A stretch of 64,000 bases of DNA from Verrucomicrobiota bacterium (GCA_025457615.1 JALOTZ010000006.1:63866-127865), one strand, 5' to 3'; positions 1-20,722 are shown, counted from the first letter of the stretch. Program-made: numbers and translations. Notes: generated by a model from the sequence alone, not told the origin.

Positions 1-936
1 GTACAAGCCATGGTGGAACGAGGCATTACCGAACTCACTGGAGCCCCCGATGCCACCTCGGCTTGGCGAACCCTCGCCAACTCGAACGACACGGTGGCCA
101 TCAAGGTCTATTCCTCACCGGGACCCAACACCGGCACGCGAATCCCGGTGGTCGCGGCCGTAGTCAAGGGACTGCTTTCCGCCTGCGTCCTCCGGACCAA
201 CATCCTGATCTGGGACCGCTCGGAAGCCGACCTCCGCGCCGCCGGTTATGCGCGTCTGGCCGAGTCCCTGGGCATCCGCCTGGGCGGAGCATTGCAGTCG
301 GGGTATGACGAACTGGATTCGTACGAGTTTGCTCTCGTGACGGGCTTGCGCTTCGGGGATCTGGAATTTGGACGCAAGGATGATGGAGCCGGGCGGCGAT
401 CGTTCGTGACCCGCCTGCTGGGTCCGAACGTCACGCGCATCATCAGCATCGCCCCGGCGTCCAACAAGCACAGCACCGGGGTGACAGGTCATCTCTACAG
501 CATGACGTTGGGGTCCGTGGACAACACCTGGCGGTTTGAAAGCAATCCCTCAACCCTCTCGTGGGTCCTGCCGGAAATCTACGCCATGCGCAGCGTGGGC
601 GATCGCGTGGTGCTCTGCATCACGGACGCGCTCATCTGCCAGTATGAAGGCGAAGAGGCCACCTTGCTGCACTACTCACAGGTGGCCAATGAGCTCTACT
701 TCGGGACCGACCCGGTCGCCCTGGATTTGCTCGCCATCCAACTGCTCGAACAGCAGCGCCGAAGTTCGGACACGGGCCGGCCCAAGCCGGACCTGAAGAC
801 CTACCAGAACGCCGCCTTGCTGCAATTGGGCACGGATGACCTCCGCCGTGTTCCGATCCGCCGATTCTCGATGGATTCCGGCACCGCGTTACCCGCCTCG
901 GGCGCGGCCACCGACACCCCTAGGGTTGAACCCTGA
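1..936 (+). CDS. DUF362-like domain protein, 5' end cut by window edge
   Basis: Frame 1 is open from nt 1 (track ORF 10..936). Blocks TVAIKVYSS, IISIAPASNKHSTGVTGHLYSMTLGSVDN and VVLCITDALICQYEGE resemble the conserved DUF362 blocks (IKPN.., K.H...G.T...KN..G, .DG....EG.GP). Assigned by eye only. Confidence 0.5.
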   Translation, partial: VQAMVERGITELTGAPDATSAWRTLANSNDTVAIKVYSSPGPNTGTRIPVVAAVVKGLLSACVLRTNILIWDRSEADLRAAGYARLAESLGIRLGGALQSGYDELDSYEFALVTGLRFGDLEFGRKDDGAGRRSFVTRLLGPNVTRIISIAPASNKHSTGVTGHLYSMTLGSVDNTWRFESNPSTLSWVLPEIYAMRSVGDRVVLCITDALICQYEGEEATLLHYSQVANELYFGTDPVALDLLAIQLLEQQRRSSDTGRPKPDLKTYQNAALLQLGTDDLRRVPIRRFSMDSGTALPASGAATDTPRVEP

Positions 937-3691
937 TCCGGAAGAAGCACTGGCTGGCATTCCCGACTGGGCAGGTGGCCGTGGTTGTCAGGCCCATGGA
1001 CACCACCGCCGGTTCACTCTCGCTCCAATTTCCGCCTGTCAGATCCTCGGTCCACTCAACGCGATAAGAGGTGTTGGGGAGTGAGGTCCATTGCAGACAG
1101 GCAACTCCATTGCTGACCTGGATTGAGTTTATCACCGGCTGAGCCGCGACCACCGGGGAAGCCTGGGGCGCCAAGCGGCGGGTCTGCAAGCTGAGCGACC
1201 AACCTTGAAGCAGGAATCCAGTGTCCCCGGTGGAGTCGTCCACCAGGTAGAGAGACCACACGCCATTCGGATCGACCTCATTCAACACGGACAACGTGGT
1301 CGCGTGCGGGGCGGGCACCGGCAGCGCATCACCCGTCGCACCGATATTTGTCGGACGATATTCGCCGGACACCACCGTGCCGCTGCCCGGGAACTCCGCC
1401 GCTTCATCCCTGAAGCTCAGTTCCAACGCATCCGCCACGGCGCCGCCACCGGCATCCGAAAGCAGCATCACCTGCTGCCCGCCAGGCCCCACGAGCAGAA
1501 TGTCCAGGTCGTCCAGAAACCCGTGCGTCAGGCCGTGCAGTTGCACCCTCACCTGCTCTACGGCGCCTTCGATCCCGCTCACGAAGAGCTGGGCGGGAAA
1601 GACGCTGGCGTTGCCCTTGGTTCCGGCGGCGGGAACCAACAGGGAGGCGGTGTTTGAGAAGACATGCGTCTCGGTTACCAGGACGAGCCCGGAGGACGAT
1701 CCGGGAAGCAGGGTAAAGTCAGCGTCCGTCAGGTCGAAAAAGACACTGTGGCTGGCCCGCACCTTGATCCGGGCCTTGGCGGCATAGACGGCGGGCAGGG
1801 AGACCAGCTCGGATCCATCATTGGGGGTCTCCCGCGCCAACATCACCGGGAAGTCACCCCCCCCATTCGTCGAAAGCAGAATGTCCACGAAGGCGGCCGA
1901 GACGGGCGCAAGGTCCGTTCCCGCCACAGCCCACTGTATGATCTGCTCGCCGGACAACTCGCCGGCACCATTGGGAACCAACACCACGAAGGGTCCGGCA
2001 TTCGTTGTCACCGTCACCTGCAGGTCGTCCATGCCGAAGGCACCTCCGCCAACATGATTGTCCCTGGCCGTGACCCGGAAGTTCAGCACGCGAGCCGTGG
2101 TGGGCAGTACCTCAGACGGAGACGAAACATCGTTCAGCAGATCCTCGATGCACGGAAACGTCCGCGAAGCTGTCAGCACCGGTGGAAACGAGCGAAACAA
2201 CGGGCCGCTTCCGTGATCCTGCCCGTCCAACGCGGCAGCCCCGCCCAGATCCACCTGCTCCCAACCGTAGGTCAACAGATCCCCATCCGGATCGCTGCCC
2301 GTTGCCGTCAACTCGAACGGCGTGGCCATGGGGATCGTCAGGTCGGTTCCGGCGGAAACACTCGGCGCGGTGTTTCCCGTGCTCTGCGGCACCGCGGACC
2401 CGGCCCCGATGAAGCTCGCCATCTCCAGCAGGCTGGCCGAGTGAAAATACGCATCACTGCTGTACTGCAGGTTGTCTGTCCCGCAGATCCCCGAGTAGCT
2501 CATGATGGTGGATCCGCTCCCCGGCTCGAAGGCCGACGCTGGATGACGGTTGTTCGCGCTGCAACTACCCGCGATCCCATTGAAGGTGTGATGCGCGCCA
2601 AACTGATGACCGATTTCATGCGCGAGATAATCCACGTAGAAGGAGTCCCCGACGGGGCTGGCGCGGCCGGTGACGCCCCGGGCCTTCCAGCCATCCACAC
2701 CCGCACTGTTCAGCTGGGCCAACCCTCCCCCACCCGTTGCCAGGACGTGGCCAACGTCATAGTTCTCTCTGCCGATCACGCCGTCCAGGGTGGATTGGTT
2801 CTGCGACAACATGGCCGCCGCGTCAGCATTGCTGTAGGGATCAGTAGCGGCATTGAAAAACACCAGGCGATCGTTGTTCGAGACCAGGACAAAGCGAACG
2901 CCCAGTTCCGACTCGTAGATGCCGTTCAGCCGGTTGACAGCGGTCACAATGGCGGCCAGACCGCTCTCCACCGTCCCGCCATGGAACAACGTGTATTCAC
3001 CGGTCGCTGCCACCGCCAGACGATAGACACGCAGTGCGCCGTCAGATTGAACCCCGCCGCTCTGCAGGCTGGACGGATCTGGTGCGGTGGCCGTCAGGCA
3101 TTCGAAGCTTTCCTCCTCCGATCGCAACGCGTCTGAGGCATAGTAGGCGACATACTCCGCACCTTCGGAATCAGCCGGATCGAGATAGACACGACCACGC
3201 GGGCCCAGGACCTGGGCATGGAGTCTGCCCCGGTAAACATCCAAGCGAAGCCTCTCCGCCCCCCCCCCCAAGCCGACTCCGCGGTAGGTCTTGATGGCCG
3301 GGAATCGCGACGCCAGATCACTGGCCATGACCGGCGATTCGACAATCAGAAACCGCTCGGTCCGTCCATCCGGCATGGGCAATGACCATTCGACACCCTC
3401 GACAATCCTGCCCGACTCGCTCTCCTTCGGAGCGCGGCTGAGGACCGCTTGTGGCCGCGCTGCATCCAGGCGGAATCGGGTTCCTTGGGGAACGGGACGA
3501 AGCGTAGGCGTGTTGACCGGAGCCGAGTTTCCTCCTTCGATTCGACTCCACCCGTGCCATTCCTCGGGCTTTGGGTCGGCCTGCGCGGCGAAGCCTGCAG
3601 ACAACAAACCACCAGCCAACAACAAAGCCTGCAGACCCGCGGGACCTTCCAGCAGGCTCGGTGAACTGCGCCTTGAAACTGAATACGGCAT
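920..3691 (-). CDS. Secreted zinc metalloprotease (metzincin, reprolysin/M12B-like) with proprotein-convertase P-domain-like region and C-terminal beta-sandwich
   Basis: Track ORF 920..3781. Start moved to M31 (ATG 3691, MPYSVSRR), which precedes the signal-like LLLAGGLLSAGFAAQA. Contains the zinc site HEIGHQFGAHH (HExxHxxGxxH), a P-domain-like block LHGLTHGFLDDLDILLVGPGG, and a last ~72 aa ending CFFRIRVQP. Confidence 0.85.
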   Translation of the reverse strand: MPYSVSRRSSPSLLEGPAGLQALLLAGGLLSAGFAAQADPKPEEWHGWSRIEGGNSAPVNTPTLRPVPQGTRFRLDAARPQAVLSRAPKESESGRIVEGVEWSLPMPDGRTERFLIVESPVMASDLASRFPAIKTYRGVGLGGGAERLRLDVYRGRLHAQVLGPRGRVYLDPADSEGAEYVAYYASDALRSEEESFECLTATAPDPSSLQSGGVQSDGALRVYRLAVAATGEYTLFHGGTVESGLAAIVTAVNRLNGIYESELGVRFVLVSNNDRLVFFNAATDPYSNADAAAMLSQNQSTLDGVIGRENYDVGHVLATGGGGLAQLNSAGVDGWKARGVTGRASPVGDSFYVDYLAHEIGHQFGAHHTFNGIAGSCSANNRHPASAFEPGSGSTIMSYSGICGTDNLQYSSDAYFHSASLLEMASFIGAGSAVPQSTGNTAPSVSAGTDLTIPMATPFELTATGSDPDGDLLTYGWEQVDLGGAAALDGQDHGSGPLFRSFPPVLTASRTFPCIEDLLNDVSSPSEVLPTTARVLNFRVTARDNHVGGGAFGMDDLQVTVTTNAGPFVVLVPNGAGELSGEQIIQWAVAGTDLAPVSAAFVDILLSTNGGGDFPVMLARETPNDGSELVSLPAVYAAKARIKVRASHSVFFDLTDADFTLLPGSSSGLVLVTETHVFSNTASLLVPAAGTKGNASVFPAQLFVSGIEGAVEQVRVQLHGLTHGFLDDLDILLVGPGGQQVMLLSDAGGGAVADALELSFRDEAAEFPGSGTVVSGEYRPTNIGATGDALPVPAPHATTLSVLNEVDPNGVWSLYLVDDSTGDTGFLLQGWSLSLQTRRLAPQASPVVAAQPVINSIQVSNGVACLQWTSLPNTSYRVEWTEDLTGGNWSESEPAVVSMGLTTTATCPVGNASQCFFRIRVQP

Positions 3692-3945
3692 CTGGATACG
3701 TCGTGCCCCCCTCCTTCCGGCCCGTGCATTCTCAGATTCACTAAATCCATTGTGAACAGCCACTTCCGGAAGAAGCACCAACTGATCTGGTGTCTAAGCA
3801 ATGGACAAGCCAGTCCCAATCTTGGGAAGAGAGTATCGCACCGGGCGGGAGGTGACAGGAAGGAGGTTGCGGACAGTGCTTCCGCAGAAGCGCGGAGGAC
3901 ATATCCGGGGGGGATGGATTCAGCCCGACTGTTCCAGATGGCTCT

Positions 3946-4230: not shown

Positions 4231-4443
4231 AGGATCTCGGACTTTCGGAACGGCGGTTGACACTCACGAGGGGGATCGACAAGATGGCGTCTCGTTGGCG
4301 CACGCTGTTCCCCAAGGGCGATGGGGTGCCATGCCCGTTCCAAGGGGATCACGGATTCGCTGGAAGCCAAGAGGCGCTTGAGAGTTCCATCGAAGCAGGC
4401 GGGTGGGGACTTTAGGCACGCGTTGAAACTGATTGAGATCACG

Positions 4444-5790
4444 ATGAAAGGCAAAGTTCTACTGGTCGAGGACCTGGAAGATTTCCGGAGTCTCTTGAAA
4501 TCCATTTTCTCGAATGATTACGAGATCAGCGAAGCGGGCAGCGCCGCAGAGCTGAAAGGGGTGATGTCGGGGTCCCAACCCGATGTCGTGGTGCTGGACC
4601 TGGGGTTGCCCGACGCCAACGGCCTGGACCTCCTGCCCCAGATCAAGAAGCAGTGGCCGGAAACCGAGGTCATCATCCTCACCGGAAACGACTCGATCCA
4701 GGTGGCGGTCGAGGCCACCAAGCGCGGGGCTTTTCATTACTTCACCAAACCCGGGGAGACCACCGCCTTGCTCGTCACCGTGGCGCGCGCCATCGAGCAC
4801 AAGCAGCAGAACGAGGAAAACAGCAACCTGCGTCGAGCCCTCGGCACCATGAGCGGCGGAAGCTCGCCCGTCTTCAAGAGCACGGAGATCAAATCTGTCG
4901 TGCGCACCGTGGAACGCGTCGCCCCCAGCGACGTCCCCATCCTCATCACCGGCGAGAGCGGCAGCGGCAAGGAGGTCATCGCCGACCTCATCCACACCCT
5001 GAGCCCACGCAGCAAGGCCCGGATCATCAAGATCAATTGCGCCGCCCTGCCCCGCGAATTGATCGAGAGCGAGCTGTTCGGCTCGGTCAAGGGCGCCTTC
5101 ACCGGGGCGCACAGCGACCGCGAGGGCCTCTTCCGCCAGGCCGAGGGCGGCACGCTGTTTTTGGACGAGATCTCCGAGATGCCCATCGACACCCAAAGCA
5201 AGCTGTTGCGGGTGTTGCAGGATCAGGAGGTGCGCCCGGTCGGGGGCAAGACCAGCTACAAGACCAACTGCCGGCTGGTGGCGGCCACCAACCGCAAGCC
5301 GGAGGACGCCATCAAGGACGGCAAACTGCGCGAAGACCTCTTCTACCGGATCAGCGCCATCTCCGTGCACCTGCCGGCGCTGCGCGAGCGCCGGGATGAC
5401 ATCATGCCCCTGGCCACCTCGTTCCTGAACAAGTACGCCTCCCAGGCCAACCGCACCATCACCGGCTTCACGCCCACTGCCGTGGAGAAGCTCACGGCGT
5501 TCGATTGGCCCGGAAACGTGCGCCAGCTCCAGAATGAGATCCAGCGCGCCGTGCTCCTCTGCGAAGGCAGCGTGGTGGACGCCGCTGACCTTTCCGTAGC
5601 CAACGCGCGCTCCGGGGCCGGCGAGGGAGGTGGCGACACCAACTTCACGCTGCTCGAAGGCGTGGAGCGCAACGCCATCGCCCAGATGCTCAAGGAAACC
5701 GGCGGCAACAAGCTCGAAGCCGCCAAACGCCTTGGCATCGGACGCCAGACCCTCTACAACAAGATCAAGGCCTACGGGATTGAGGTGTAA
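4444..5790 (+). CDS. Sigma-54-dependent response regulator (NtrC/Fis family enhancer-binding protein), no adjacent kinase
   Basis: REC domain (DVVVLDLGLPDANG). AAA+ activator core (GESGSGKE Walker A, GAFTGA sigma-54 contact loop, ESELFGS). C-terminal Fis-type HTH (GRQTLYNKIKAYGI). ATG 4444 (MKGKVLLVEDL) preferred over the track start 4321. Confidence 0.9.
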   Translation: MKGKVLLVEDLEDFRSLLKSIFSNDYEISEAGSAAELKGVMSGSQPDVVVLDLGLPDANGLDLLPQIKKQWPETEVIILTGNDSIQVAVEATKRGAFHYFTKPGETTALLVTVARAIEHKQQNEENSNLRRALGTMSGGSSPVFKSTEIKSVVRTVERVAPSDVPILITGESGSGKEVIADLIHTLSPRSKARIIKINCAALPRELIESELFGSVKGAFTGAHSDREGLFRQAEGGTLFLDEISEMPIDTQSKLLRVLQDQEVRPVGGKTSYKTNCRLVAATNRKPEDAIKDGKLREDLFYRISAISVHLPALRERRDDIMPLATSFLNKYASQANRTITGFTPTAVEKLTAFDWPGNVRQLQNEIQRAVLLCEGSVVDAADLSVANARSGAGEGGGDTNFTLLEGVERNAIAQMLKETGGNKLEAAKRLGIGRQTLYNKIKAYGIEV

Positions 5791-5924
5791 GGAGGCGGTC
5801 CCCGCCTGCGGAACACTTCTCCAAGCCCCCTCGGCAACCCAAGGTTGTCCGGCGTTGCGGCGGCATATTGTGTCTCAAGCGGGGCTGCCCGGGACAACCA
5901 ATTCGGCTGCCGCGCCCGTCCGTC

Positions 5925-5964
5925 TTTGAGCTTTACTTCCTAATACTCCTGATTAGTTTGAGCT
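5925..5964 (+). promoter_or_regulatory. AT-rich island with direct repeat TTTGAGCT x2 (32-nt spacing); candidate activator binding sites
   Basis: TTTGAGCT occurs at 5925-5932 and 5957-5964 inside the only AT-rich stretch of the spacer, ~60-100 nt upstream of the candidate sigma-54 promoter at 6011-6028. Confidence 0.25.
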
Positions 5965-6010
5965 CCAGCCACCACGGCCCGCGCCCGCATCGCGGATGCT
6001 GTGGCGTGTG

Positions 6011-6028
6011 TTGGGTGACGTTCTTGCG
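6011..6028 (+). promoter_or_regulatory. Candidate sigma-54 promoter for the giant secreted protein gene
   Basis: ttGGgtgacgttcTTGCg: GG at 6014-6015 and GC at 6026-6027 with exact GG-N10-GC spacing. The -12 TTGC is intact and the -24 box is imperfect. It lies 55 nt upstream of ATG 6083. Confidence 0.3.
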
Positions 6029-6082
6029 ACAGAGTCCGAAAACCCGATCTCAACCGAAGTCCATGACCAGGAGATTTTGAGC

Positions 6083-9000
6083 ATGAAGACCACCGGCCTT
6101 GTTCTTGCCGCCCTCCTCGCTGGCGCGGCCTCGTCGTCCGCAACCATCCTGTCCGTCACGGGCAATGACACCCTGGTCGGCAACCACACCACGAACCTGA
6201 TTCTCAACGGCAGTTTTGAGGCAGACGGGGGCGTGGTGTCCAACGGCGCCTACTGGGCCACCGGCACCACCCTGACGCCCGCCTTCTCGCTGACCTCCTG
6301 GAGCGCCTCCGGCCAGTCCGGCAGCTACGCGCACTGGGGCAACGACGGGCTGGGCGGCATCAAGGGCAGCGCCCCGCTTCCGCACGGCACCAACGCCCTC
6401 TACTTTGGCGCGGGGATCATGCTTCTAGTCGCTCCCTTCCCCATCGAAGCCACCAACGGCCTGGTCACGTTCACCTCCACCCCCGCCATCCTGCCCAAGC
6501 CCGGGGACGGCCCGGTGACCTTGCAGCAGACCGTTTCGGGCCTGAACCCCGCCGCCACCTACCTGCTGGATTTCTGGACCAGTGGGGAGGATGTCGGGAA
6601 GCCAGAGATGGCCGTGGACGGCTTCTTCGGCCTGGACATCACCGGCGAACCGACGCTCTACTTCGCCGCCCCGAGCGGGAACGGCCTGGTGGGCGCCTCC
6701 CAGCGCTACCAAGTCTATTTCACGCCGACGGCCTCGACGGTGACGTTTCAATGGAGCAATTGGGGCCACGATGTGGATCCCAACGGGTTCGCCGACGAAC
6801 TGGTGCTGGACGACATCATCCTGAACAAGATCTCCGGCCCGGAGGACCCGTTGCTGTGCGGCTGCCTGACGAACATCACCGTCACCTGTCCCGCCGTGCT
6901 CCCAGACCTGTGCGCCCTGGCCACGAACTGCTTCACCACGAACATGCTGCCGGGGTCCTGCACACAGAACCTCCCGCCTGGAATGCCGGTGTCCGTGGGC
7001 ACCTACGTCCTCAACCTGCAGGTGCTGGATCTCCAGAGCAACGCGTTCTCGTGTCCCGTGACGTTCACGGTGGTTCCGCCATCGAATGCGCCGCCGCTGA
7101 CCGTCCTCTGTTCCACGAACAAGACTGTCGAGTGTGGAAGCGAGTGGGACTTCGATCCGCCGGTCGTCACCTCGTTCTGCTGCGGGCTGACGATCACGCC
7201 GAACGACATCGTGGTGAGCAACAGCCCCTGTTCCCAGAGCCTCACCCGCACCTGGTTGATCACCGACGGCTGCGGCAACACCACCAGTTGCAGCCAGGAG
7301 GTGACCCTGGTGGACACCACGCCGCCGGGCACGCAATGTGACGGCCAGAACCTGGTGCCGAACGGCGGCTTCGAGCGCTACACCAACTGCCCCTCCTCCA
7401 TCTCGCAGTTCGCCTTCGCCGCGCCGTGGTTCACGCCGACCGACGCCACGACGGATTACTACAACAGTTGCTCCGGCGCCGGCTCGTTCGTCACCACGCC
7501 GACCAACAGCGTGGGCGTGCAGGCGCCGTTAAGCGGACAGGCCTACGCGGGCGCGGCGCTCTACACGACGTTCGGCACCAACCCCACCAATTCCTACCGG
7601 GAGTATCTCGAAGTGCCGCTGCTCACGAGCTTGACCGCCGGACAACAATACCTCGTGTCGTTTTACGTGAGCCGGGCGGAGTATTTCGGCCAGGCCATCG
7701 CGGACATCGGGGCGAAATTCTTCCCGATGCCATTCGTCAATTACGGCCCGTTGAGCAATGCCTACACAGGCGTGCTCGTGCACCCGATTCCCCCGCAGGT
7801 CGCCAATCCGCCGAGCAACATGCTCACCGACTCGACCAACTGGACGCTCATTCAGGGCCTGTACACCGCCATCGGCTGGGAAACGCACCTGGTCCTGGGC
7901 AATTTCAAGGATGACCCCGGCACCACCGCCACGCTGGTCGGGGGCCAGGACAACAACTACGCCTACTACTACTTTGACAACGTCTCGGTGGTCGCGGTGT
8001 GCGATCCAGCGATGACGAACCAGGTCGTGCAATGCGGCACGCCTTGGGAGATTCCGCCGTTCCCGGTCTTCGACAACTGCAACGGCGGCAACATCACCGT
8101 GTCAAACTACACCGCGACGAACGGGTATTGTCCCACGGTGGTGCAGCGCGACTGGTATCTGGCCGACCCCTGCGGGAACACGAACAGGTTCACCCAGACG
8201 GTGACCATCGTGGACACGAACCCGCCGCAGCTCCTGTGCGCCGCCGGGGCCAACCTGGCGCCCAATCCGCAGTTTGAAAACTACGCCTTCTGTCCCTTCA
8301 ACTTCTCGCAGGTGTCCGCTGCCGGGCCGTGGTTCAATCCGACCGTCGCCACGCCGGACTACCTGAACACCTGCTCCTCGTTCCCCGCCGCACAGGTGCC
8401 GAACAACCTGCTGGGCAGCCAGACCCCGTTCAGCGGCAATGGCTACATGGGCGCGTACGCCTACTCCGTTTACGGGACCAACCCGGTGCCCGGCTACCGC
8501 GAGTATCTCGAGGCGCCCCTGCTTGTCCCGTTGCAGGCGGGCCAGCAGTACCAGGTTTCCTTCCGTGTCTGCCTGGCCGACACGTCCGGCTGGTCCATCA
8601 GCGATCTGGGCGCGCATTTCTCTGTCGGCCCAGTGCTGAACGGCTCGAGCGAAGGGCCCTTGAACGTCGTCCCGCAGGTTGCCAATCCGCCCGGTAACCT
8701 GCTCACCAACCAGACCGGTTGGATGCTCGTGCAGGGCGTGTTCACCGCGGCGGGCGGCGAGGACCACATCACGCTCGGCAATTTCCTCGATGACGCCTCC
8801 ACCCTGGCGGTGACCAACGCGTCCGGCACCAACCACACGTATTACTACTACGACGACATCGCGGTCGTGCCGTTGTGCGAGTTCACGAACAAATTCGTGG
8901 CCTGCGAGTCCGTGTGGGAATTTGACACGCCGCTGGCCTACGACAGTTGCAGCGGCGAATACCTCTCCACCTTCGTCACCAGCACGACGACCAGCGGCAC

Positions 9001-12000
9001 CTGCCCGAAGGTCCACACCCGGATCTGGACGATCTACGATGCCTGCAACAACTGGATCACCGCCACGCAGACGGTCACGGAGGTGGACACGGTGCCGCCC
9101 GAACTGCTGTGTTCCGGCCTGAACTTGGTGCCGAACGCAGATTTCGAGAACACGTTCCAGTGTGCCGGCGCCTTGTCGTTCCTGCCGTTCGCCCAACCCT
9201 GGTTTCAGCCCACGATCGGCAGCCCGGATCTCTACAACCCCTGCGCCACGCTCGCCTCCGGCGCTTCCGTGCCGGTGAACATGTTCGGTTCGCAAACACC
9301 CTTCGCCGGCCAGAACTACGCGGGCGGTTATGTCTATTTCCCAGGCGGGGCGGGAACGAACTCCTACCGCGAATACCTCACCGCGCCGCTGTTCGCGCCC
9401 CTCGTGGCGGGGCAATCCTACGCCGTTTCCTTCCGCGTGAGCCGCGGGGACAACTGTGCTTACGCGGCGGCGGAGATCGGCGCGCATTTCTCCGCCGGCC
9501 CGCTCACGAATTACCCCGGCAGCTACCTTGCGGCCACGCCGCAGATCGTCAACCCCCCGGCCAACGTCATCACGTCAGCCACCAACTGGACCCTGATCTC
9601 CGGTGTGCTCACCGCGGGCGGCGGCGAGGATTACATCACGATCGGCAACTTCCTCACCGATGCCAGCACCACCGCCTCGTTCCTCGGCGGGTCGATCAAC
9701 TCAGCCTATTACTACTACGACGACGTGCGGGTCATCGCGCTCTGCACCAATGTTCCGGTCAAGACCGTGGCCTGCGGCGAGCCGTGGGAATTCGATCCCG
9801 CGCCCCTGGCCGTGGATCGTTGCGCCGGCAGCAACGTGACCGTCACGCTCGCCGGCACGATCACGAACAGCCTGTGCCCGGTCAACGTGGTCCGCACCTG
9901 GACCCTCGCCGACGCGTGCGGCAACGCGACCAACTGGAGTCAGACGATCCTCGCCCTGACCAACGGCAGCGTGTTGGCGGTGAACTGCGAGTGCCTGCTG
10001 GACAACGCGCTCGCGCTGCTCACCACGAACGCGTGCCAGGCCGCCGTGCCGGACCTTTCCGGGCTCTCGAACTCGCCGTGCATCCTCAATAACTGCGGCG
10101 CGATCCAGATCACCCAGTCACCAGCGCCGGGAACGCCTGTCGGCGCGGGCAGCCACCCCATTACCGTGCGGATTTCCAATTGCGCCGGGCTCACGAACAC
10201 GTGCGTCCTGCCCTTCTACGTGAACCCGCCGCAACCGACCCTCACCTGCCCGCCGAACCTCGTCGTTTACGGTTGCAGCAACAACTCCGCGGTCGTGAAC
10301 TACGCGGCCACCGCGACCGGCCATGTCGGCCCGATCCTCTACTCGCCGCCGTCTGGAAGCCTCTTCAGTCTGGGCACCCACACCGTCACCTGCACGGCCA
10401 CGAACCTTTGCGGCGGGGCCAACACCTGCACGTTCACGGTCACCGTCCGACCACCGCACCGGAAGTGGGGTTGTCTGACCAAGATCATCGGCATCATCAG
10501 CTATCCGCCGCCGGTGGGCCGGGTGATTTACCGGCCCGACTTCCCCGGCGGCGGTCGGGGCGTGGACCTTGCCGATTTCAGCGGCACGGAAGGGGTGCGC
10601 TTCGACCTCGGCCCGGCGGAGAAGTTCACGTTCAGCACGATGCTGGACTTCGACGCGCCCACGAACGCGAGTTTTGAACTGCACCTGCCGCCCGGCGCGG
10701 GGCTGCCCACCAGCACGCCGCTGGTCCGCTTCGAGCGCAGTTGCGAGGTGCATTGCGGCTGGGACGTCAAGCTGGGCGCACAGATTGTCAGCGATCCGAC
10801 CGCCACCTTCCGGGCCGCCGCCATCAATCTGAACGGGGAACTGCTCGATTCCGTCACTGTCCCGCACGCCAGCCTCGGAACGAACGTCTTCGCCAGCCTG
10901 TCGCCCATGGATGGCTCGACCAACGGGCTGATGACCGTGACGTTCGACCTGCGCACGCGGTCGATCGCGCTGGAGTTTCCATCCGGGGATTTCATGCCGT
11001 CGGCCCGGCACAAGGGTTGGGACGGGTGCATTTACGGCAACCGCCCACCGCGCACCACCAAGACCAACCATGCCGCGCGGGTCATCATCACGCCGCAGCC
11101 CCCCCTGCCCCCGCCCCCGATCACCGAACTCAGCCTGGCGATCAGCAACCTCGCCACGCTCGCGTTCGACAATCCGGCCATCACCATGTCCGGCCGCAAA
11201 TGGAGCGACGGTCATGTGACCTTGATGAAGGCCTACGACGACGGGTCCGAGAGCGGCATGGAATTCTCCGCGCTCGGCGCCAGCGGAGGGCTGGACGCCG
11301 AACTGGGCCACGCCGCGAGCTTCTCGCTTCGCCTGACGTCGCTCGACACCAACGGCCTGCCGCTGCTGGAACAGCAGTTCGCCATCCGTGGCTGGCCGCC
11401 GGGCACCACGACAAACCGCCCTCCGCCCCCGGTCATCAACGTGCGCCTCGCCCCCGACAACAGCGGCCTGGGCGGTGTGCAACTCGGCGCGGACCTGGTG
11501 GATTGGGGCGTGTCCGAAGTCACGCTGCAACTCTGGGACGGGCCGACGCTTGTGGCCGAGACGAACCACGTTCCGGCCATGCCCGGCGGCACGCTCGCGA
11601 TGTTGGGTGGGTTCCCGGGAATTCTCGGCTGCCCCGGCGTGGGTGTGGTGAGCTTGTCCGACACCAATCCGATCATCGTCCTGAGCGGCCTGGACTGCGG
11701 CACGCTCGGCTGTGTCGGCACCGAACTGCGCATCCTCGCCGAGACGTCCACGATGTCCACCCCGCCAACGGCCTACACCGATCTCACCGCCACCATCGGC
11801 GAGGAAATGGATTACCTGATCCACGACCTGCAAAGCGCGCCCGCCTGCGTGGTGGCACCCTTGCAAGTCGCACGGGGCGCCAACAGCGTCACGTTGAGTT
11901 GGGAAGGCGACGGCTTCCACTTGCAGGGCGCGGAAAGCGTCAGCGGACCGTGGTATGACCTGGGGGTCGAATCCCCGGCCACCATCCCGGCCGGTTCCGC

Positions 12001-12031
12001 CACCCGCGTGTTCCGGCTTCGCTGCGATTAA
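6083..12031 (+). CDS. Giant secreted adhesin-like protein (1982 aa): jelly-roll/CBM-like modules alternating with Cys-rich HYR-type modules, one canonical HYR domain, unknown C-terminal region
   Basis: Track ORF 5996..12031. ATG 6083 is preceded by GGAG and followed by the signal peptide MKTTGLVLAALLAGAASSSA. Repeated motifs: NLVPNGGFE..C, YREYLE.PL...L.AGQ.Y.VSF.V, YYYYDD(I/V).V. Cys-rich units end in RTW...D.CGN.....Q.VT..DT.PP. HYR-like unit: LTCPPNLVVYGC...GTHTVTCTATNLCGGANTCTFTVTVRPP. Confidence 0.85.
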   Translation: MKTTGLVLAALLAGAASSSATILSVTGNDTLVGNHTTNLILNGSFEADGGVVSNGAYWATGTTLTPAFSLTSWSASGQSGSYAHWGNDGLGGIKGSAPLPHGTNALYFGAGIMLLVAPFPIEATNGLVTFTSTPAILPKPGDGPVTLQQTVSGLNPAATYLLDFWTSGEDVGKPEMAVDGFFGLDITGEPTLYFAAPSGNGLVGASQRYQVYFTPTASTVTFQWSNWGHDVDPNGFADELVLDDIILNKISGPEDPLLCGCLTNITVTCPAVLPDLCALATNCFTTNMLPGSCTQNLPPGMPVSVGTYVLNLQVLDLQSNAFSCPVTFTVVPPSNAPPLTVLCSTNKTVECGSEWDFDPPVVTSFCCGLTITPNDIVVSNSPCSQSLTRTWLITDGCGNTTSCSQEVTLVDTTPPGTQCDGQNLVPNGGFERYTNCPSSISQFAFAAPWFTPTDATTDYYNSCSGAGSFVTTPTNSVGVQAPLSGQAYAGAALYTTFGTNPTNSYREYLEVPLLTSLTAGQQYLVSFYVSRAEYFGQAIADIGAKFFPMPFVNYGPLSNAYTGVLVHPIPPQVANPPSNMLTDSTNWTLIQGLYTAIGWETHLVLGNFKDDPGTTATLVGGQDNNYAYYYFDNVSVVAVCDPAMTNQVVQCGTPWEIPPFPVFDNCNGGNITVSNYTATNGYCPTVVQRDWYLADPCGNTNRFTQTVTIVDTNPPQLLCAAGANLAPNPQFENYAFCPFNFSQVSAAGPWFNPTVATPDYLNTCSSFPAAQVPNNLLGSQTPFSGNGYMGAYAYSVYGTNPVPGYREYLEAPLLVPLQAGQQYQVSFRVCLADTSGWSISDLGAHFSVGPVLNGSSEGPLNVVPQVANPPGNLLTNQTGWMLVQGVFTAAGGEDHITLGNFLDDASTLAVTNASGTNHTYYYYDDIAVVPLCEFTNKFVACESVWEFDTPLAYDSCSGEYLSTFVTSTTTSGTCPKVHTRIWTIYDACNNWITATQTVTEVDTVPPELLCSGLNLVPNADFENTFQCAGALSFLPFAQPWFQPTIGSPDLYNPCATLASGASVPVNMFGSQTPFAGQNYAGGYVYFPGGAGTNSYREYLTAPLFAPLVAGQSYAVSFRVSRGDNCAYAAAEIGAHFSAGPLTNYPGSYLAATPQIVNPPANVITSATNWTLISGVLTAGGGEDYITIGNFLTDASTTASFLGGSINSAYYYYDDVRVIALCTNVPVKTVACGEPWEFDPAPLAVDRCAGSNVTVTLAGTITNSLCPVNVVRTWTLADACGNATNWSQTILALTNGSVLAVNCECLLDNALALLTTNACQAAVPDLSGLSNSPCILNNCGAIQITQSPAPGTPVGAGSHPITVRISNCAGLTNTCVLPFYVNPPQPTLTCPPNLVVYGCSNNSAVVNYAATATGHVGPILYSPPSGSLFSLGTHTVTCTATNLCGGANTCTFTVTVRPPHRKWGCLTKIIGIISYPPPVGRVIYRPDFPGGGRGVDLADFSGTEGVRFDLGPAEKFTFSTMLDFDAPTNASFELHLPPGAGLPTSTPLVRFERSCEVHCGWDVKLGAQIVSDPTATFRAAAINLNGELLDSVTVPHASLGTNVFASLSPMDGSTNGLMTVTFDLRTRSIALEFPSGDFMPSARHKGWDGCIYGNRPPRTTKTNHAARVIITPQPPLPPPPITELSLAISNLATLAFDNPAITMSGRKWSDGHVTLMKAYDDGSESGMEFSALGASGGLDAELGHAASFSLRLTSLDTNGLPLLEQQFAIRGWPPGTTTNRPPPPVINVRLAPDNSGLGGVQLGADLVDWGVSEVTLQLWDGPTLVAETNHVPAMPGGTLAMLGGFPGILGCPGVGVVSLSDTNPIIVLSGLDCGTLGCVGTELRILAETSTMSTPPTAYTDLTATIGEEMDYLIHDLQSAPACVVAPLQVARGANSVTLSWEGDGFHLQGAESVSGPWYDLGVESPATIPAGSATRVFRLRCD
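7346..9970 (+). repeat. Three tandem ~290-aa protein-coding repeat units inside the giant gene
   Basis: Units start at 7346 (QNLVPNGGFERY), 8249 (ANLAPNPQFENY) and 9119 (LNLVPNADFENT). Each is a ~200-aa jelly-roll-like module followed by a ~75-aa Cys-rich module. Confidence 0.8.
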
Positions 12032-12297
12032 CGAGGCTGGCCGAATGGATGGCGGGATCAGCCCGCGCGCAGGAACGCCTCCACCTTGACCTGGATGGTG
12101 GATTCCGAGCCGGGGACGCTCAACACGTCGCAGTCACGGCCCAGGATGGACAGGAGCAGGCGGCCTGCGACTGGGTCGTGGGCTTCGGGAGCTTTGTGGC
12201 TGCTGCGGGTCGCGGACCCGTGCTCCAGACTGAGAATGGCTGTTTTGCCGCGCTGGAAGATTGCGTCGCCACCGTCCCTCGGGCAAAACTGGGGCCC

Positions 12298-13158
12298 ATG
12301 CCGACGACACCCCATCCATCCTCGCGTTCCCAGGTCCTGCTGGTGGAATGTGATGACCGCCGTGGGCTCGTCCATGCCATCACCGGCGTCCTGCTGCGGC
12401 ACGGCGTCAACGTGGTGGGCAACCAGGAGTTTGTGGACCGCGGCTCGGGGCGCTTTTTCATGCGCACCGAGTTCGACGGCGAGGTGGATGCCGGACGGCT
12501 CGAAACCGAGGCCCGGCAGGCGTTGCCGGAGGGTGCGCGGGTGCGGCTTAGCGACCTGAAACCCAAGCGTGTGGTGGTGCTGGCCTCCAAGGAGCACCAT
12601 TGCCTGGGCGACATCCTGGTCCGGCACGCCTACGGCGAACTCAATGCCCGGGTGCTGGCGGTGCTCGCCAATCATCCCGTCCTGGAACCGCTGGTGGCCC
12701 GGTTTGATCTCCCGTTCCATTGCCTCAGCCACGAATCCCTCTCGCGCCCCGAGCACGAGGCCGCCCTGCTCGGGATCCTCGAACCGCTCCAGCCGGACTA
12801 CCTGGTCCTGGCCAAATACATGCGGGTGTTGTCCCCGGACTTCGTCGCCCGGTTCCCGGCGCGCATCCTGAACATTCACCATTCCTTCCTGCCGGCCTTT
12901 GCCGGCGCCAAGCCGTACCAGCAGGCGTTTGATCGCGGCGTCAAGGTCATCGGCGCCTCGGCGCATTTCGTCACCGACAAGCTGGACGAAGGCCCGCTGA
13001 TCGTGCAGCAGGTCATTCCGGTGGACCACACGCACACGGCGCATGACCTGTCGCAAGCCGGGCGTGATGTCGAGCAGATGGTGCTGGCCCGCGCGTTGCG
13101 CCTGGTGTTCGAGGACCGCGTGTTCCTGTGCGGCAACCGCACGGTGATTTTCGATTGA
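12298..13158 (+). CDS. purU: Formyltetrahydrofolate deformylase
   Basis: N-terminal ACT-like domain (VLLVECDDRRGLVHAITGVLLRHGVNV) plus a formyltransferase core (ILNIHHSFLPAFAGAKPYQQA, GASAHFVTDKLDEGPLI). Start at M84 of track ORF 12049..13158. Confidence 0.9.
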   Translation: MPTTPHPSSRSQVLLVECDDRRGLVHAITGVLLRHGVNVVGNQEFVDRGSGRFFMRTEFDGEVDAGRLETEARQALPEGARVRLSDLKPKRVVVLASKEHHCLGDILVRHAYGELNARVLAVLANHPVLEPLVARFDLPFHCLSHESLSRPEHEAALLGILEPLQPDYLVLAKYMRVLSPDFVARFPARILNIHHSFLPAFAGAKPYQQAFDRGVKVIGASAHFVTDKLDEGPLIVQQVIPVDHTHTAHDLSQAGRDVEQMVLARALRLVFEDRVFLCGNRTVIFD

Positions 13159-15777: not shown

Positions 15778-17061
15778 ATGTCACAACTAGTCGGAAACTT
15801 ACTGGTCGCCCAATCCGGTGGCCCCACGGCCGCCATCAATGCCAGCGTCGCCGGCGTGGTCACCGAGGCCGGACGGCACCCGGACACCATCGAGGAGATC
15901 TACGGCGGGCTCAATGGCATCTACGGCATCCTCAACGAGGAGATCATCGACATCCAGGAAGAACAGCGGGCCACCATCGATGCGTTGCGTTTCGCCCCGG
16001 CCGCCGCCTTGGGCACCTGCCGCTACAAGATCGATTTCAAAAAGAAACCCGAGAAGGCCGCCCAGGACATGGACCGCCTGTTCGAGGTCTTCAAGGCCCA
16101 CAACATCCGCTATTTCTTCTACGCCGGCGGTAACGATTCTCAGGACACCTCCCACAAGATCCACCTGGAAGCGGAGAAGCGTGGCTGGGAAATGCGCGTC
16201 ATCGGCGTGCCCAAAACCATCGACAACGACCTGCCCCACACCGACAGTTGCCCCGGCTACGGCTCGGCCATCAAATACTGCGCCACCACCGTCCGCGAGG
16301 TCGGCATGGATGTCGCCAGCATGGCCACCGACGACGGTTCCTGCTGCATCATCGAGGTAATGGGCCGCTCCGCCGGCTGGATCGCGGCCGGAACGGTGCT
16401 CGCCAAGGGCGGCAATCCCGCCAATCCGCCACACATCGTCCTCCTGCCCGAGATCCAATACGACGTGGACGAGTTTGTCGCCAAGGTGAAGGAGACCATT
16501 GCCGCTTACGGTTACTGCGTGGTCGTGGTCGGGGAAGGCATCAAGAACAAGGCGGGCGAGGAAATCGGGGCGGACAAGACCCGTCTGGACGCCTTCGGCC
16601 ACCCCGTGCTGGCCGGCGCGGCCGAGAAGCTCAAGGACTACATCCAGGAAAAGCTCAACACCAAGACCCGCACGGTCATGCTCGGATACGCCCAGCGCGC
16701 CGCCGCCCACTGGGCCAGTCTGACGGACATCAACAACGGGTTCGCTTGTGGGGAAGCCGCCGTCCGGGCCGCCGTCGGGGGCCAGAGCGGTTACATGGTG
16801 AAGATCGTTCGCAACCCCACCCCCAATGGCACCATCGAGTGGTCCACGGGCCTTCAACCGCTCGGGGATATCGCCAACGTCGAGCACTTCGTGCCCCGCG
16901 AGTGGATCGCCGAAGACGGGTTCCTGCCCAACCAAGAGTTCGTCAACTACGCCGGCCCCCTGATCGAGGGCGAGGTCCGTCCGCGCATGGTGAATGGCCT
17001 GCCCGATTACGTGCGCCTCACCAAGAACAAGGTGGAAAAGGTGCTTCCGCCCCGAGGCTGA
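15778..17061 (+). CDS. pfp: Phosphofructokinase, PfkA family, PPi-dependent type predicted
   Basis: GGPTAAINAS, GGNDS and VPKTIDNDL motifs. Asp at the GGxDS position and Lys in PKTIDND are the published signatures of PPi- rather than ATP-dependent enzymes. RBS AAGGGAG lies 15 nt upstream. Confidence 0.8.
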   Translation: MSQLVGNLLVAQSGGPTAAINASVAGVVTEAGRHPDTIEEIYGGLNGIYGILNEEIIDIQEEQRATIDALRFAPAAALGTCRYKIDFKKKPEKAAQDMDRLFEVFKAHNIRYFFYAGGNDSQDTSHKIHLEAEKRGWEMRVIGVPKTIDNDLPHTDSCPGYGSAIKYCATTVREVGMDVASMATDDGSCCIIEVMGRSAGWIAAGTVLAKGGNPANPPHIVLLPEIQYDVDEFVAKVKETIAAYGYCVVVVGEGIKNKAGEEIGADKTRLDAFGHPVLAGAAEKLKDYIQEKLNTKTRTVMLGYAQRAAAHWASLTDINNGFACGEAAVRAAVGGQSGYMVKIVRNPTPNGTIEWSTGLQPLGDIANVEHFVPREWIAEDGFLPNQEFVNYAGPLIEGEVRPRMVNGLPDYVRLTKNKVEKVLPPRG

Positions 17062-17081
17062 TTCGACCAGCGCAAACCTCC

Positions 17082-17118
17082 AAGCCCGTCCTGCAATCAC
17101 CGTGGGACGGGCTTTTTG
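17082..17118 (+). terminator. Rho-independent terminator after pfp
   Basis: AAGCCCGTCC (17082-17091) pairs with GGACGGGCTT (17105-17114) across a 13-nt loop. Followed by a T-run reading TTTTTG. Lies 20 nt after the stop codon. Confidence 0.7.
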
Positions 17119-17297
17119 CGGACAGATTTGCAAGAGGCCACCACCGGGTGACGGGAGCAGATCGAGCGGCAAGCGCCAGAAGCGCCAGCGAGAGGGTTTA
17201 TGACGCCGCCGGGCGCATGCTGGAAACCGTGCAATACCCGTTCCGTTACAAGCAGACTGGTTTGCCGCCGCCGATTCGTGTAGAAACTGCCGCGCGC

Positions 17298-19853: not shown

Positions 19854-20722
19854 ATTACCGCATCCTCCACCGCACCACCCACCACTACGGAGAGCCGGTG
19901 TCGGTGTCCCATCACGCCGCGCGGCTGGTCCCGCGTGTGATGACCTCGCAACAGTGCCAGTCCTTCGCGTTGCGCATCGAGCCCGAACCCGCGGTGCGTC
20001 AATCCCGGCGGGACTATTTCGGCAACGAGGTCTGGTTCTTCAGCATCCAGGAGGTTCACAATCGCCTGGAGGTCATCGCGGAGAGCGTCGTCTCGGTGCA
20101 GGAACCGCCCCCCAACCGGTTGAGCGCCCCGCCGGCGTGGGCGGAGGTGGCGTTGTCCCTGGCGGATCCGGCCACGCCCGAGCTGGTGGACGCCTGCCAG
20201 TTCACCTTCGATTCGCCGATGGTCGGCGCCTCCCTGGAGTTGCTGGATTACGCCAAGCCCAGCCTTGGCAAGGACCTCCCCCTGCTGGCCGGGGTGGCCG
20301 ACCTGTGCCGGCGCATCCACCAGGACTTCCAGTTCGATCCCAAAGCCACCACGGTCGCCACCCCGCTGGCCGAGGTTCTGCGGATGCGGCGCGGGGTCTG
20401 TCAGGACTTCGCGCATCTCGCCCTCGGCTGCCTGCGCTCCGCCGGCCTGGCGGCGCGCTACGTCAGCGGTTACCTCCGCACGCGTCCACCGGAAGGCCAG
20501 CCTCGGTTGGTGGGGGTGGATGCGTCACACGCCTGGATCCAGGTCTTCTGCCCCACGCGCGGCTGGGTGGATTTTGATCCGACCAATGACCTGCAACCGG
20601 GCGACGAGCACATCACCGTGGCCTATGGACGCGACTACTCGGACGTCAGCCCCTTGAGCGGCATTCTCACCGGAGGCGGCACGCACGAGGTGACGGTGGC
20701 TGTGGATGTGGAGGGATTGTGA
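19850..20722 (+). CDS. Transglutaminase-like family protein (COG1305-like)
   Basis: MNYRILHRTTHHYGEPVSVSHHAARLVPR N-terminus. Cys-His-Asp core: GVCQDFAHLALGCLRSAGLAARYVSGY, DASHAWIQVF, DFDPTN. ATGA start/stop overlap with the upstream gene. Confidence 0.85.
   Translation: MNYRILHRTTHHYGEPVSVSHHAARLVPRVMTSQQCQSFALRIEPEPAVRQSRRDYFGNEVWFFSIQEVHNRLEVIAESVVSVQEPPPNRLSAPPAWAEVALSLADPATPELVDACQFTFDSPMVGASLELLDYAKPSLGKDLPLLAGVADLCRRIHQDFQFDPKATTVATPLAEVLRMRRGVCQDFAHLALGCLRSAGLAARYVSGYLRTRPPEGQPRLVGVDASHAWIQVFCPTRGWVDFDPTNDLQPGDEHITVAYGRDYSDVSPLSGILTGGGTHEVTVAVDVEGL

Follow-up and report, generated by a model that had tools for sequence, protein, structure and literature searches.

What does the large protein encoded at positions 6083..12031 (+) of a 64,000-nucleotide stretch of Verrucomicrobiota DNA (GCA_025457615.1, JALOTZ010000006.1:63866-127865; the whole stretch is called the window below) do outside the cell, and what purpose would its long C-terminal region serve? 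The open reading frame (ORF) encodes 1982 amino acids (aa) and a stop codon, as an earlier, sequence-only reading of this DNA had found. Its product is a secreted, conserved protein of a soil or freshwater Verrucomicrobium of the Limisphaerales/Pedosphaera type. The answer to which we give moderate credence is that it is a Sec-exported, disulfide-rich and multivalent glycan-binding (lectin-like) surface protein. This view draws on an array in which predicted jelly-roll modules, most similar in fold to carbohydrate-binding modules (CBMs), alternate with HYR-type domains, and on a constant C-terminal tail of about 520 aa that is confined to this bacterial lineage.

Architecture and age of the repeat array

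Pfam searches with the whole protein return four HYR_4C domains, one HYR domain and no other domain, NCBIfam searches return no match, and domain searches place the whole protein in no well-characterised family. The module order that had been read from the translation agrees with the layout obtained from Pfam, hhalign and AlphaFold 2 (AF2). From the start of the gene to the beginning of the tail, this layout is as follows.

6083..12031 (+): complete gene, MCU0770800.1
6083..6142 (+): signal peptide, Sec-type, MKTTGLVLAALLAGAASSSA; read from the sequence, no lipobox Cys
6143..6856 (+): N-terminal domain, ~238 aa (NGSFE ... LVLDDIILN), optional in the family; no Pfam or PDB match
6857..7114 (+): module B, divergent HYR-type Cys-rich domain; hhalign, and BLAST (31% identity to residues 1315-1404)
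7115..7342 (+): HYR_4C domain 0; Pfam PF23237 and self-BLAST
7343..8002 (+): J1, CBM4/16/22-like jelly roll, flanked by Cys419 and Cys640
8003..8242 (+): HYR_4C domain 1; Pfam, AF2
8243..8875 (+): J2, jelly roll (the modelled copy), with flanking Cys719 and Cys932 and an internal Cys737/Cys764 pair; AF2, Foldseek
8876..9115 (+): HYR_4C domain 2; Pfam, AF2
9116..9745 (+): J3, jelly roll, flanked by Cys1010 and Cys1221
9746..9970 (+): HYR_4C domain 3; Pfam, best stretch residues 1228-1289
9971..10234 (+): module B2, second divergent HYR-type domain; hhalign
10235..10462 (+): canonical HYR domain (PF02494); Pfam, residues 1385-1455, E 3e-5

Three tandem units are resolved by self-BLAST (residues 404-703, 704-994 and 995-1289), in agreement with the three diverged units of ~290 aa, each a jelly roll joined to a Cys-rich module, that had been recognised at 7346, 8249 and 9119; each of these starts lies one residue before the motif NL(V/A)PN. 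The units are 45-53% identical to one another in amino acid sequence and, because they are just ~67% identical in DNA, collapse during assembly is ruled out. Eight three-unit orthologues were compared; in seven of them the copy at the same position is 54-82% identical to the J copy of the window protein, against only 44-55% for copies at other positions, and mean identities of J are 0.60-0.67 within positions and 0.50-0.51 between them. The J copies are thus positionally orthologous across the family and, since same-position copies are more alike than other-position copies, the triplication is older than the divergence of these species. In its number of units the window protein agrees with 27 other family members that have three. 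The proposal of an old duplication, as opposed to an artefact, is borne out by both the positional orthology and the DNA identity.

A search of 5.8 billion proteins yielded about 38 full-length relatives, 48-75% identical to the window protein. Hidden Markov models (HMMs) of the individual modules reveal a shared plan, [N-domain] B H (J H)n B2 HYR C1 C2 Cterm, in which H is HYR_4C and n is 1, 2, 3 or 5, so that orthologues do differ in their number of units; a few forms are broken up by an additional B2. Within the 64-kb window, the modules of the protein occur in no other ORF.

The Cys-rich modules had been likened to HYR repeats, and this is what Pfam finds: HYR_4C matches four stretches (residues ~345-407, 645-707, 931-998 and 1227-1289; 57.6 bits against a gathering cut-off of 27), and the same profile matches 32 of 34 family units. 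In HYR_4C domain 2 the four-Cys set consists of Cys941, 956, 974 and 988, whose columns are at least 90% conserved (alignment A2). The canonical HYR domain that had been placed at ~10241-10456 corresponds to the Pfam HYR match at residues 1385-1455 (24.6 bits, gathering cut-off 21.7). A Cys-rich module had also been noted after the N-terminal domain; it is present, but as a divergent HYR domain (module B, residues 259-344) with a second copy, B2 (residues 1297-1384), that had gone unlisted. Comparison by hhalign relates B to B2 (99.9%), B to HYR (94%) and HYR_4C to HYR (98%). By these profile comparisons B and B2 are divergent HYR domains and, given in addition the kinship of HYR_4C with HYR, the window protein carries seven HYR-type Ig-like domains.

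One element of the sequence-only reading finds no support, namely the CBM/DUF642-like nature of the N-terminal domain. Residues 21-258 have no Pfam match at E<=10 (window domain and four orthologous domains searched), no PDB sequence match, and no profile similarity to J (hhalign probability 5%); a DUF642 (PF04862) or CBM identity was dropped, with Pfam, PDB phmmer and hhalign against J all negative. The domain occurs in 24 relatives, while roughly a third of the family does without it, including the forms of ~1750 aa, in which it is gone and the signal peptide is kept.

The start of the gene is annotated in two ways. The NCBI record ('HYR domain-containing protein [Verrucomicrobiota bacterium]', 1982 aa) begins at ATG 6083, which is preceded by GGAG 9 nucleotides (nt) upstream and leads straight into MKTTGLVLAALLAGAASSSA|TIL. 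The JGI annotation (P0507) differs in starting at the in-frame ATG 5996 (2011 aa), which would add 29 acidic, non-signal residues. We favour 6083 because of its Shine-Dalgarno sequence, the position of the signal peptide and the orthologues: the signal peptide that had been predicted has equivalents in 20 of 20 family members inspected. Since this signal peptide has no lipobox, the protein has no N-terminal anchor. Scans around the gene for sigma-70 promoters and intrinsic terminators found none, and the G+C content of the whole window is 62-68% throughout.

The jelly-roll module

To predict the fold of a repeat unit, HYR_4C-J2-HYR_4C was modelled with AF2 from an alignment of 34 family units, and a confident jelly roll resulted (predicted local distance difference test, pLDDT, 89.8; predicted template modelling score, pTM, 0.77), as had been anticipated from the sequence. 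Among PDB structures, Foldseek finds J nearest to CBM4-2 (2y6j, target-normalised template modelling score, TMt, 0.66), CBM16 (2zex, 0.67) and CBM22 (4xuo, 0.63), with further matches to the CelK CBM4 (3p6b) and to the Kgp K1-K3 cleaved-adhesin domains of gingipain (4itc, 3km5 and 3m1h). All of these matches have a probability of 1.00; TMt is 0.60-0.67 for the CBM4/16/22 structures and 0.44-0.57 for the cleaved adhesins. The model thus shows J (~210 aa) as a predicted beta-jelly-roll of the CBM4/CBM16/CBM22 and gingipain cleaved-adhesin class.

Sequence searches reach this class barely or not at all. CBM_4_9 (PF02018) has no match in the window protein at E<=1 and weak, sub-threshold matches in 7 of the 34 family units (E<=1, best 2e-4); precomputed CBM_4_9 matches exist on orthologues, and the unit profile has no match among PDB sequences. 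Like the CBMs of families 4, 9, 16 and 22, whose folds it matches, J has N..FE at its start and YY.DD.V at its end, but it is 12-15% identical to solved CBMs, with most copies below the Pfam threshold, is ~60 residues larger, has a conserved, predicted internal disulfide and a REY motif, and is joined to no glycoside hydrolase. With the Kgp cleaved-adhesin domains it shares the jelly-roll class and repetition within a surface protein; the window protein differs in having neither a Pfam Cleaved_Adhesin match nor a protease domain.

The J profile alone matches at least 919 proteins (clusters). Most of the carriers are Bacteroidota proteins of ~300 aa, in which J is followed by a type IX secretion system (T9SS) C-terminal domain (CTD; PF18962 or PF13585) or which are named as OmpA-family proteins; one carrier ends in a C-terminal transmembrane (TM)/RR tail. 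Because its carriers join J to T9SS CTD, OmpA or TM/RR anchors, J would seem to be a populous, surface-displayed 'head' set before assorted anchors. Neither Pfam nor NCBIfam has a model for J (NLVPNPSFE ... YREY ... YYYIDDV) despite these at least 919 clusters (carriers include P0269-P0388), and literature searches on NLVPNPSFE found no paper; J would qualify for consideration as a new entry, be it a domain or a CBM family.

Over 28 proteins, 52 residues of J do not vary whichever of the three places in the array the copy holds, and no column is position-specific, that is, fixed within one position and different between positions. The idea of three specificities for J1, J2 and J3 was dropped for the latter reason. 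Conserved Cys pairs flank each J (419/640, 719/932 and 1010/1221) and, because the termini of the jelly roll are adjacent, each pair would form a disulfide that closes the base of the module.

The C-terminal tail and its distribution

The last ~520 residues had been called unassignable. By sequence this stands: searches of Pfam, NCBIfam and PDB sequences leave residues 1461-1982 (522 aa) unmatched, also when a profile of 523 positions derived from an alignment of 25 tails is used (alignment A1, in which the window protein is row 1). It does not stand for the fold, since AF2 confidently predicts an all-beta structure (pLDDT 80.4, pTM 0.82) of three beta-sandwiches (residues ~1461-1637, 1663-1773 and 1780-1922) and a terminal sandwich of 57 aa, with conserved loop motifs.

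10463..10993 (+): tail sandwich S1, residues 1461-1637; AF2
11012..11038 (+): motif KGWDGCIYG in a low-confidence loop; alignment A1, pLDDT <50
11069..11401 (+): tail sandwich S2, residues 1663-1773, contains GRKWSDGHVTLMKAYDDG and LGHAASF; AF2, alignment A1
11390..11434 (+): nearly invariant motif GWPPGTTTNRPPPPV, between S2 and S3; alignment A1, AF2
11420..11848 (+): tail sandwich S3, residues 1780-1922; AF2, pLDDT 85-95
11858..12028 (+): terminal 57-aa beta-sandwich (W..LQGAE..GPW.DL..SP....R.FRL.CD); AF2, alignment A1

The PPLPPPP linker occupies residues 1673-1679, shortly after the start of S2. A terminal beta-sandwich ending in RVFRLRCD had been proposed at 11858-12028, and a small beta-sandwich is what AF2 predicts there, with Cys1922 and Cys1981, both nearly invariant, on either side of it. 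The only stretches of the tail modelled with low confidence are its most conserved ones, KGWDGCIYG and GWPPGTTTNRPPPP; throughout alignment A1, the KGWDGxIYG motif keeps G185, W186, I190 and G192 without exception. Literature searches on KGWDG found no paper. An internal duplication within the tail was considered and rejected, hhalign comparisons of S1, S2 and S3 with each other, with J and with the N-terminal domain being insignificant (best S1-S2, 43%).

The best Foldseek matches of the whole tail are tandem galectins (E 4e-4, probability 0.9-0.99, TM 0.17-0.35, identity 8-11%). The tandem-repeat galectins (galectin-8, engineered galectin-1 tandem) likewise have two consecutive beta-sandwiches, but the tail has no galectin sequence signature and consists of three sandwiches and a terminal domain, so that the modelled resemblance would be one of fold class only.

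In an exhaustive HMMER search of 1.84 billion representatives, the tail profile has only 373 matches with E<=1e-3, and 56 with E<=1e-30. Wherever an intact protein matches over the full length, the tail is C-terminal, and a HYR domain immediately precedes the tail in nine of ten carriers scanned with Pfam; the window protein, with a full-length, C-terminal tail behind a HYR domain, belongs to this group. What lies N-terminal of that HYR domain varies, from one, two, three or five J-HYR_4C units to plain HYR arrays and Laminin_G_3. A scan of 185,579 species genomes gave 31 tail loci, and those with a plausible taxon label are all from Verrucomicrobiota, Limisphaerales or Pedosphaera. As judged from these searches, the tail appears to be restricted to the Limisphaerales/Pedosphaera-type lineage. 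Seven third-party-annotation (TPA) metagenome-assembled genomes (L008, L012, L016, L025, L027, L028 and L029), titled 'uncultured Bifidobacteriaceae', 'Bifidobacterium' or 'Akkermansia', hold a Limisphaerales-type gene (up to 72% identity); their taxon labels look wrong.

Parts of the tail are more widespread. Profile region 208-435 recurs as a repeat in other proteins like those of the Planctomycetes-Verrucomicrobia-Chlamydiae (PVC) group. Two proteins (P0223 and P0194) carry distant relatives of the tail sandwiches in tandem and end in dockerin-type repeats; P0223 retains NLGSSGQDGV, KGWDGLIYG, RGHVIIMKLYDD and FTNRCPPG. The tandem relatives in this pair suggest that the tail unit is part of a wider, unmodelled family. 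The motif KGWDGxI[YK]G, for which Pfam has no model, is also found as a free-standing tandem repeat (RKGWDGSIKGN, 4 to ~10 copies) in two otherwise unrelated, low-complexity proteins, P0247 and P0260. A profile search with the 57-aa domain returned mostly contig-end fragments and gained little.

Possible function, regulation and significance

The function that we consider somewhat better than evenly probable, that of a multivalent glycan-binding surface protein, can be pictured as follows. The J modules, from their fold class, would bind carbohydrate, and their repetition would confer avidity rather than three specificities, because there are no position-specific differences and all copies share the 52 invariant residues. 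With its base closed by the flanking Cys pair, each J would hang off the HYR chain, giving three equivalent CBM-type heads spaced along a semi-rigid stalk made of the HYR_4C, B, B2 and canonical HYR domains. The constant C-terminal module would serve as a proximal 'base', holding the protein to the cell envelope or to some partner; it would sit where a T9SS CTD, an OmpA domain or a PEP-CTERM-like anchor stands in J proteins of other phyla.

Several considerations weigh against this picture. Carbohydrate binding is predicted from the modelled fold class only, and the same jelly roll has protein-binding and purely structural roles too. An anchoring role for the tail is proposed from its position and constancy only, and its whole-fold matches are weak (tandem galectins at E 4e-4, TMt 0.35). 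The tail has no TM segment, lipid-attachment motif or outer-membrane beta-barrel signature, and no conserved partner gene lies beside the tail gene in 35 loci. None of the known devices was detected: Pfam finds no T9SS CTD (PF18962, PF13585) in the whole protein or in 25 tails; PEP-CTERM features are absent, the protein ending in ...RVFRLRCD after a beta-sandwich with no hydrophobic segment and no NCBIfam match; and for an autotransporter or outer-membrane beta-barrel there is neither a Pfam match nor a barrel among the Foldseek matches of the tail. Release into the medium could equally be the fate of the protein. Finally, HycP (Ccel_1491) of Clostridium cellulolyticum combines a CBM3, which binds cellulose, with 23 HYR modules, yet a knockout of the gene affected neither adhesion nor growth (PMC3723904), so the joining of a CBM to HYR domains does not guarantee an adhesin role.

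A different role for the tail has to be weighed here. The C-terminal module, or its 57-aa sandwich, may be a dedicated PVC secretion or sorting signal read by an outer-membrane machinery for export or attachment, as the CTD is by the T9SS, with the rest of the protein as cargo. In 87 of 103 carriers the 57-aa domain forms the very C-terminus (in several of the remaining carriers it lies within 10 residues of the terminus), and these carriers are otherwise unrelated in architecture, including a NAGPA phosphodiester glycosidase, He_PIG, SBBP and NHL fragments and TIGR03803 repeat proteins. It resembles T9SS CTDs in size and fold class, and Bacteroidota relatives of J bear T9SS CTDs at the equivalent position. 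Yet no such machinery is known or was identified, there is no conserved neighbour gene, and the domain also occurs internally and in tandem (6-10 copies in P0203, P0205 and P0246), which would be unusual for a sorting signal; we regard this explanation as unlikely, though worth keeping in view. About equally doubtful is the broader conjecture that the tail as a whole (three sandwiches, the KGWDGxIYG and GWPPGTTTNRPPPP loops and the 57-aa domain) is an undescribed, T9SS-CTD-like attachment or export device of the PVC group, bearing a shuffled or transferred Bacteroidota-type head of J and HYR_4C.

Slightly less likely still is a role as a scaffold or matrix component, secreted but not anchored (in a biofilm, in the extracellular matrix or in cohesion between cells), with HYR domains and jelly rolls that serve protein-protein interaction or self-association instead of recognising specific glycans. 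Arrays of HYR domains are characteristic of adhesion proteins and of those in the extracellular matrix, searches with Pfam, NCBIfam and the tail profile detected no anchor motif, and the dockerin-like ends of the distant tail relatives P0223 and P0194 hint at the assembly of complexes. On the other hand, J is closest by Foldseek to bona fide carbohydrate-binding modules, and in other phyla it is joined to cell-surface anchors.

As for regulation, the gene upstream (4321..5790, +) encodes an NtrC-type response regulator (REC, sigma-54 AAA+ and HTH_8 domains), and the downstream genes are purU, an M3 peptidase gene and PFK. That the HYR gene lies directly behind a sigma-54 activator, as had been remarked, is correct insofar as the two adjoin, but the implied link does not hold. 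A regulated adhesin cassette, with the gene as a sigma-54-dependent target of this regulator, is suggested by the shared strand and the distance of 292 nt, but is very improbable and already largely refuted: three orthologues (63-72% identical, in unrelated neighbourhoods) have no activator nearby, all-against-all BLAST of flanking ORFs in 35 loci shows no neighbour recurring beyond close relatives, TGGCAC-N5-TTGCW has no match with <=2 mismatches in 5791..6082 (33 window-wide against 33 expected), the upstream regions of orthologues share no conserved GG-N10-GC element, and the sole well-placed sigma-54-like element in the region faces a divergent protease gene. Because the adjacency is not conserved, the upstream region has no promoter match and no neighbour recurs, the gene is regarded as stand-alone and its association with sigma-54 as coincidental.

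The element facing the protease gene is a sigma-54-like -24/-12 sequence, TGGCTTGTCCATTGCT, at 3797-3812 (-), in which the spacing of GG and GC is correct; a divergent, reprolysin-like M12B metalloprotease gene (920..3781, -) has its likely true start (ATG near 3691, signal peptide MPYSVSRR...) ~105 nt downstream of this element. Matches as stringent as the element occur at chance rate window-wide; the NtrC-type activator may serve the metalloprotease gene rather than the HYR gene. On the other side, the purU-like ORF (12049-13158, +; ACT and Formyl_trans_N) begins 17 nt past the stop codon of the HYR gene; as no Pfam domain is reached in it before residue 96, this start has probably been set too far upstream, and the true intergenic gap would be larger. 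Farther on, a cluster of CP_ATPgrasp_2 (circularly permuted ATP-grasp), Alpha-E and transglutaminase-like genes lies at 16248-20722 (+). Its 1201-aa ORF overlaps the PFK ORF, and the start of this ORF is likely overcalled, since its first domain starts at residue 443.

Among studied proteins HycP is the closest analogue, and its phenotype tempers the label 'adhesin'. Both are large secreted proteins with CBM-type jelly rolls, a HYR array and no catalytic domain found. HycP differs in being a Firmicutes protein with a single CBM3, a long unbroken HYR array and no 520-aa tail, whereas the verrucomicrobial protein has a tail and three CBM4/16/22-like modules that alternate 1:1 with HYR_4C. The SprB-type and other HYR- and HYR_4C-rich T9SS surface proteins of Bacteroidota, among them gliding adhesins and CHU_C or Por_Secre_tail cargo, are likewise large and repetitive, with HYR_4C and HYR repeats and a C-terminal non-repeat module, and J is common among T9SS cargo of that phylum; in contrast, Pfam finds no PF18962, PF13585 or SprB repeat (PF13573) in the window protein, whose host is a Verrucomicrobium and whose C-terminus is a Limisphaerales-restricted module. 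What is already known is thus a deposited, generically named protein of the broad class of HYR/CBM mosaic surface proteins, of which the present one is a lineage-specific variant; its tail matches no described family. There are three new elements: the 1:1 array of J and HYR_4C; the finding that J is a CBM-like domain, so far unmodelled, which T9SS cargo of Bacteroidota has as well; and a tail with invariant loop motifs that is rare, strictly C-terminal and restricted to Limisphaerales.

Limisphaerales (Pedosphaera-type Verrucomicrobia) are abundant polysaccharide degraders of soil and freshwater. They are not known to have a T9SS, and the anchoring of their surface proteins is undescribed. The analysis of this gene isolates two modules that have no curated model, the J jelly roll, which hundreds of T9SS cargo proteins of Bacteroidota also carry, and the constant 520-aa tail with its strictly conserved loop motifs. 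Should neither have the role considered here, the protein would be another lineage-specific mosaic adhesin-like protein of a kind common in metagenomes. If J binds a defined glycan, it would add a new CBM family, and a tail that served for attachment or sorting would offer a handle on the biogenesis of surface proteins in the PVC group.

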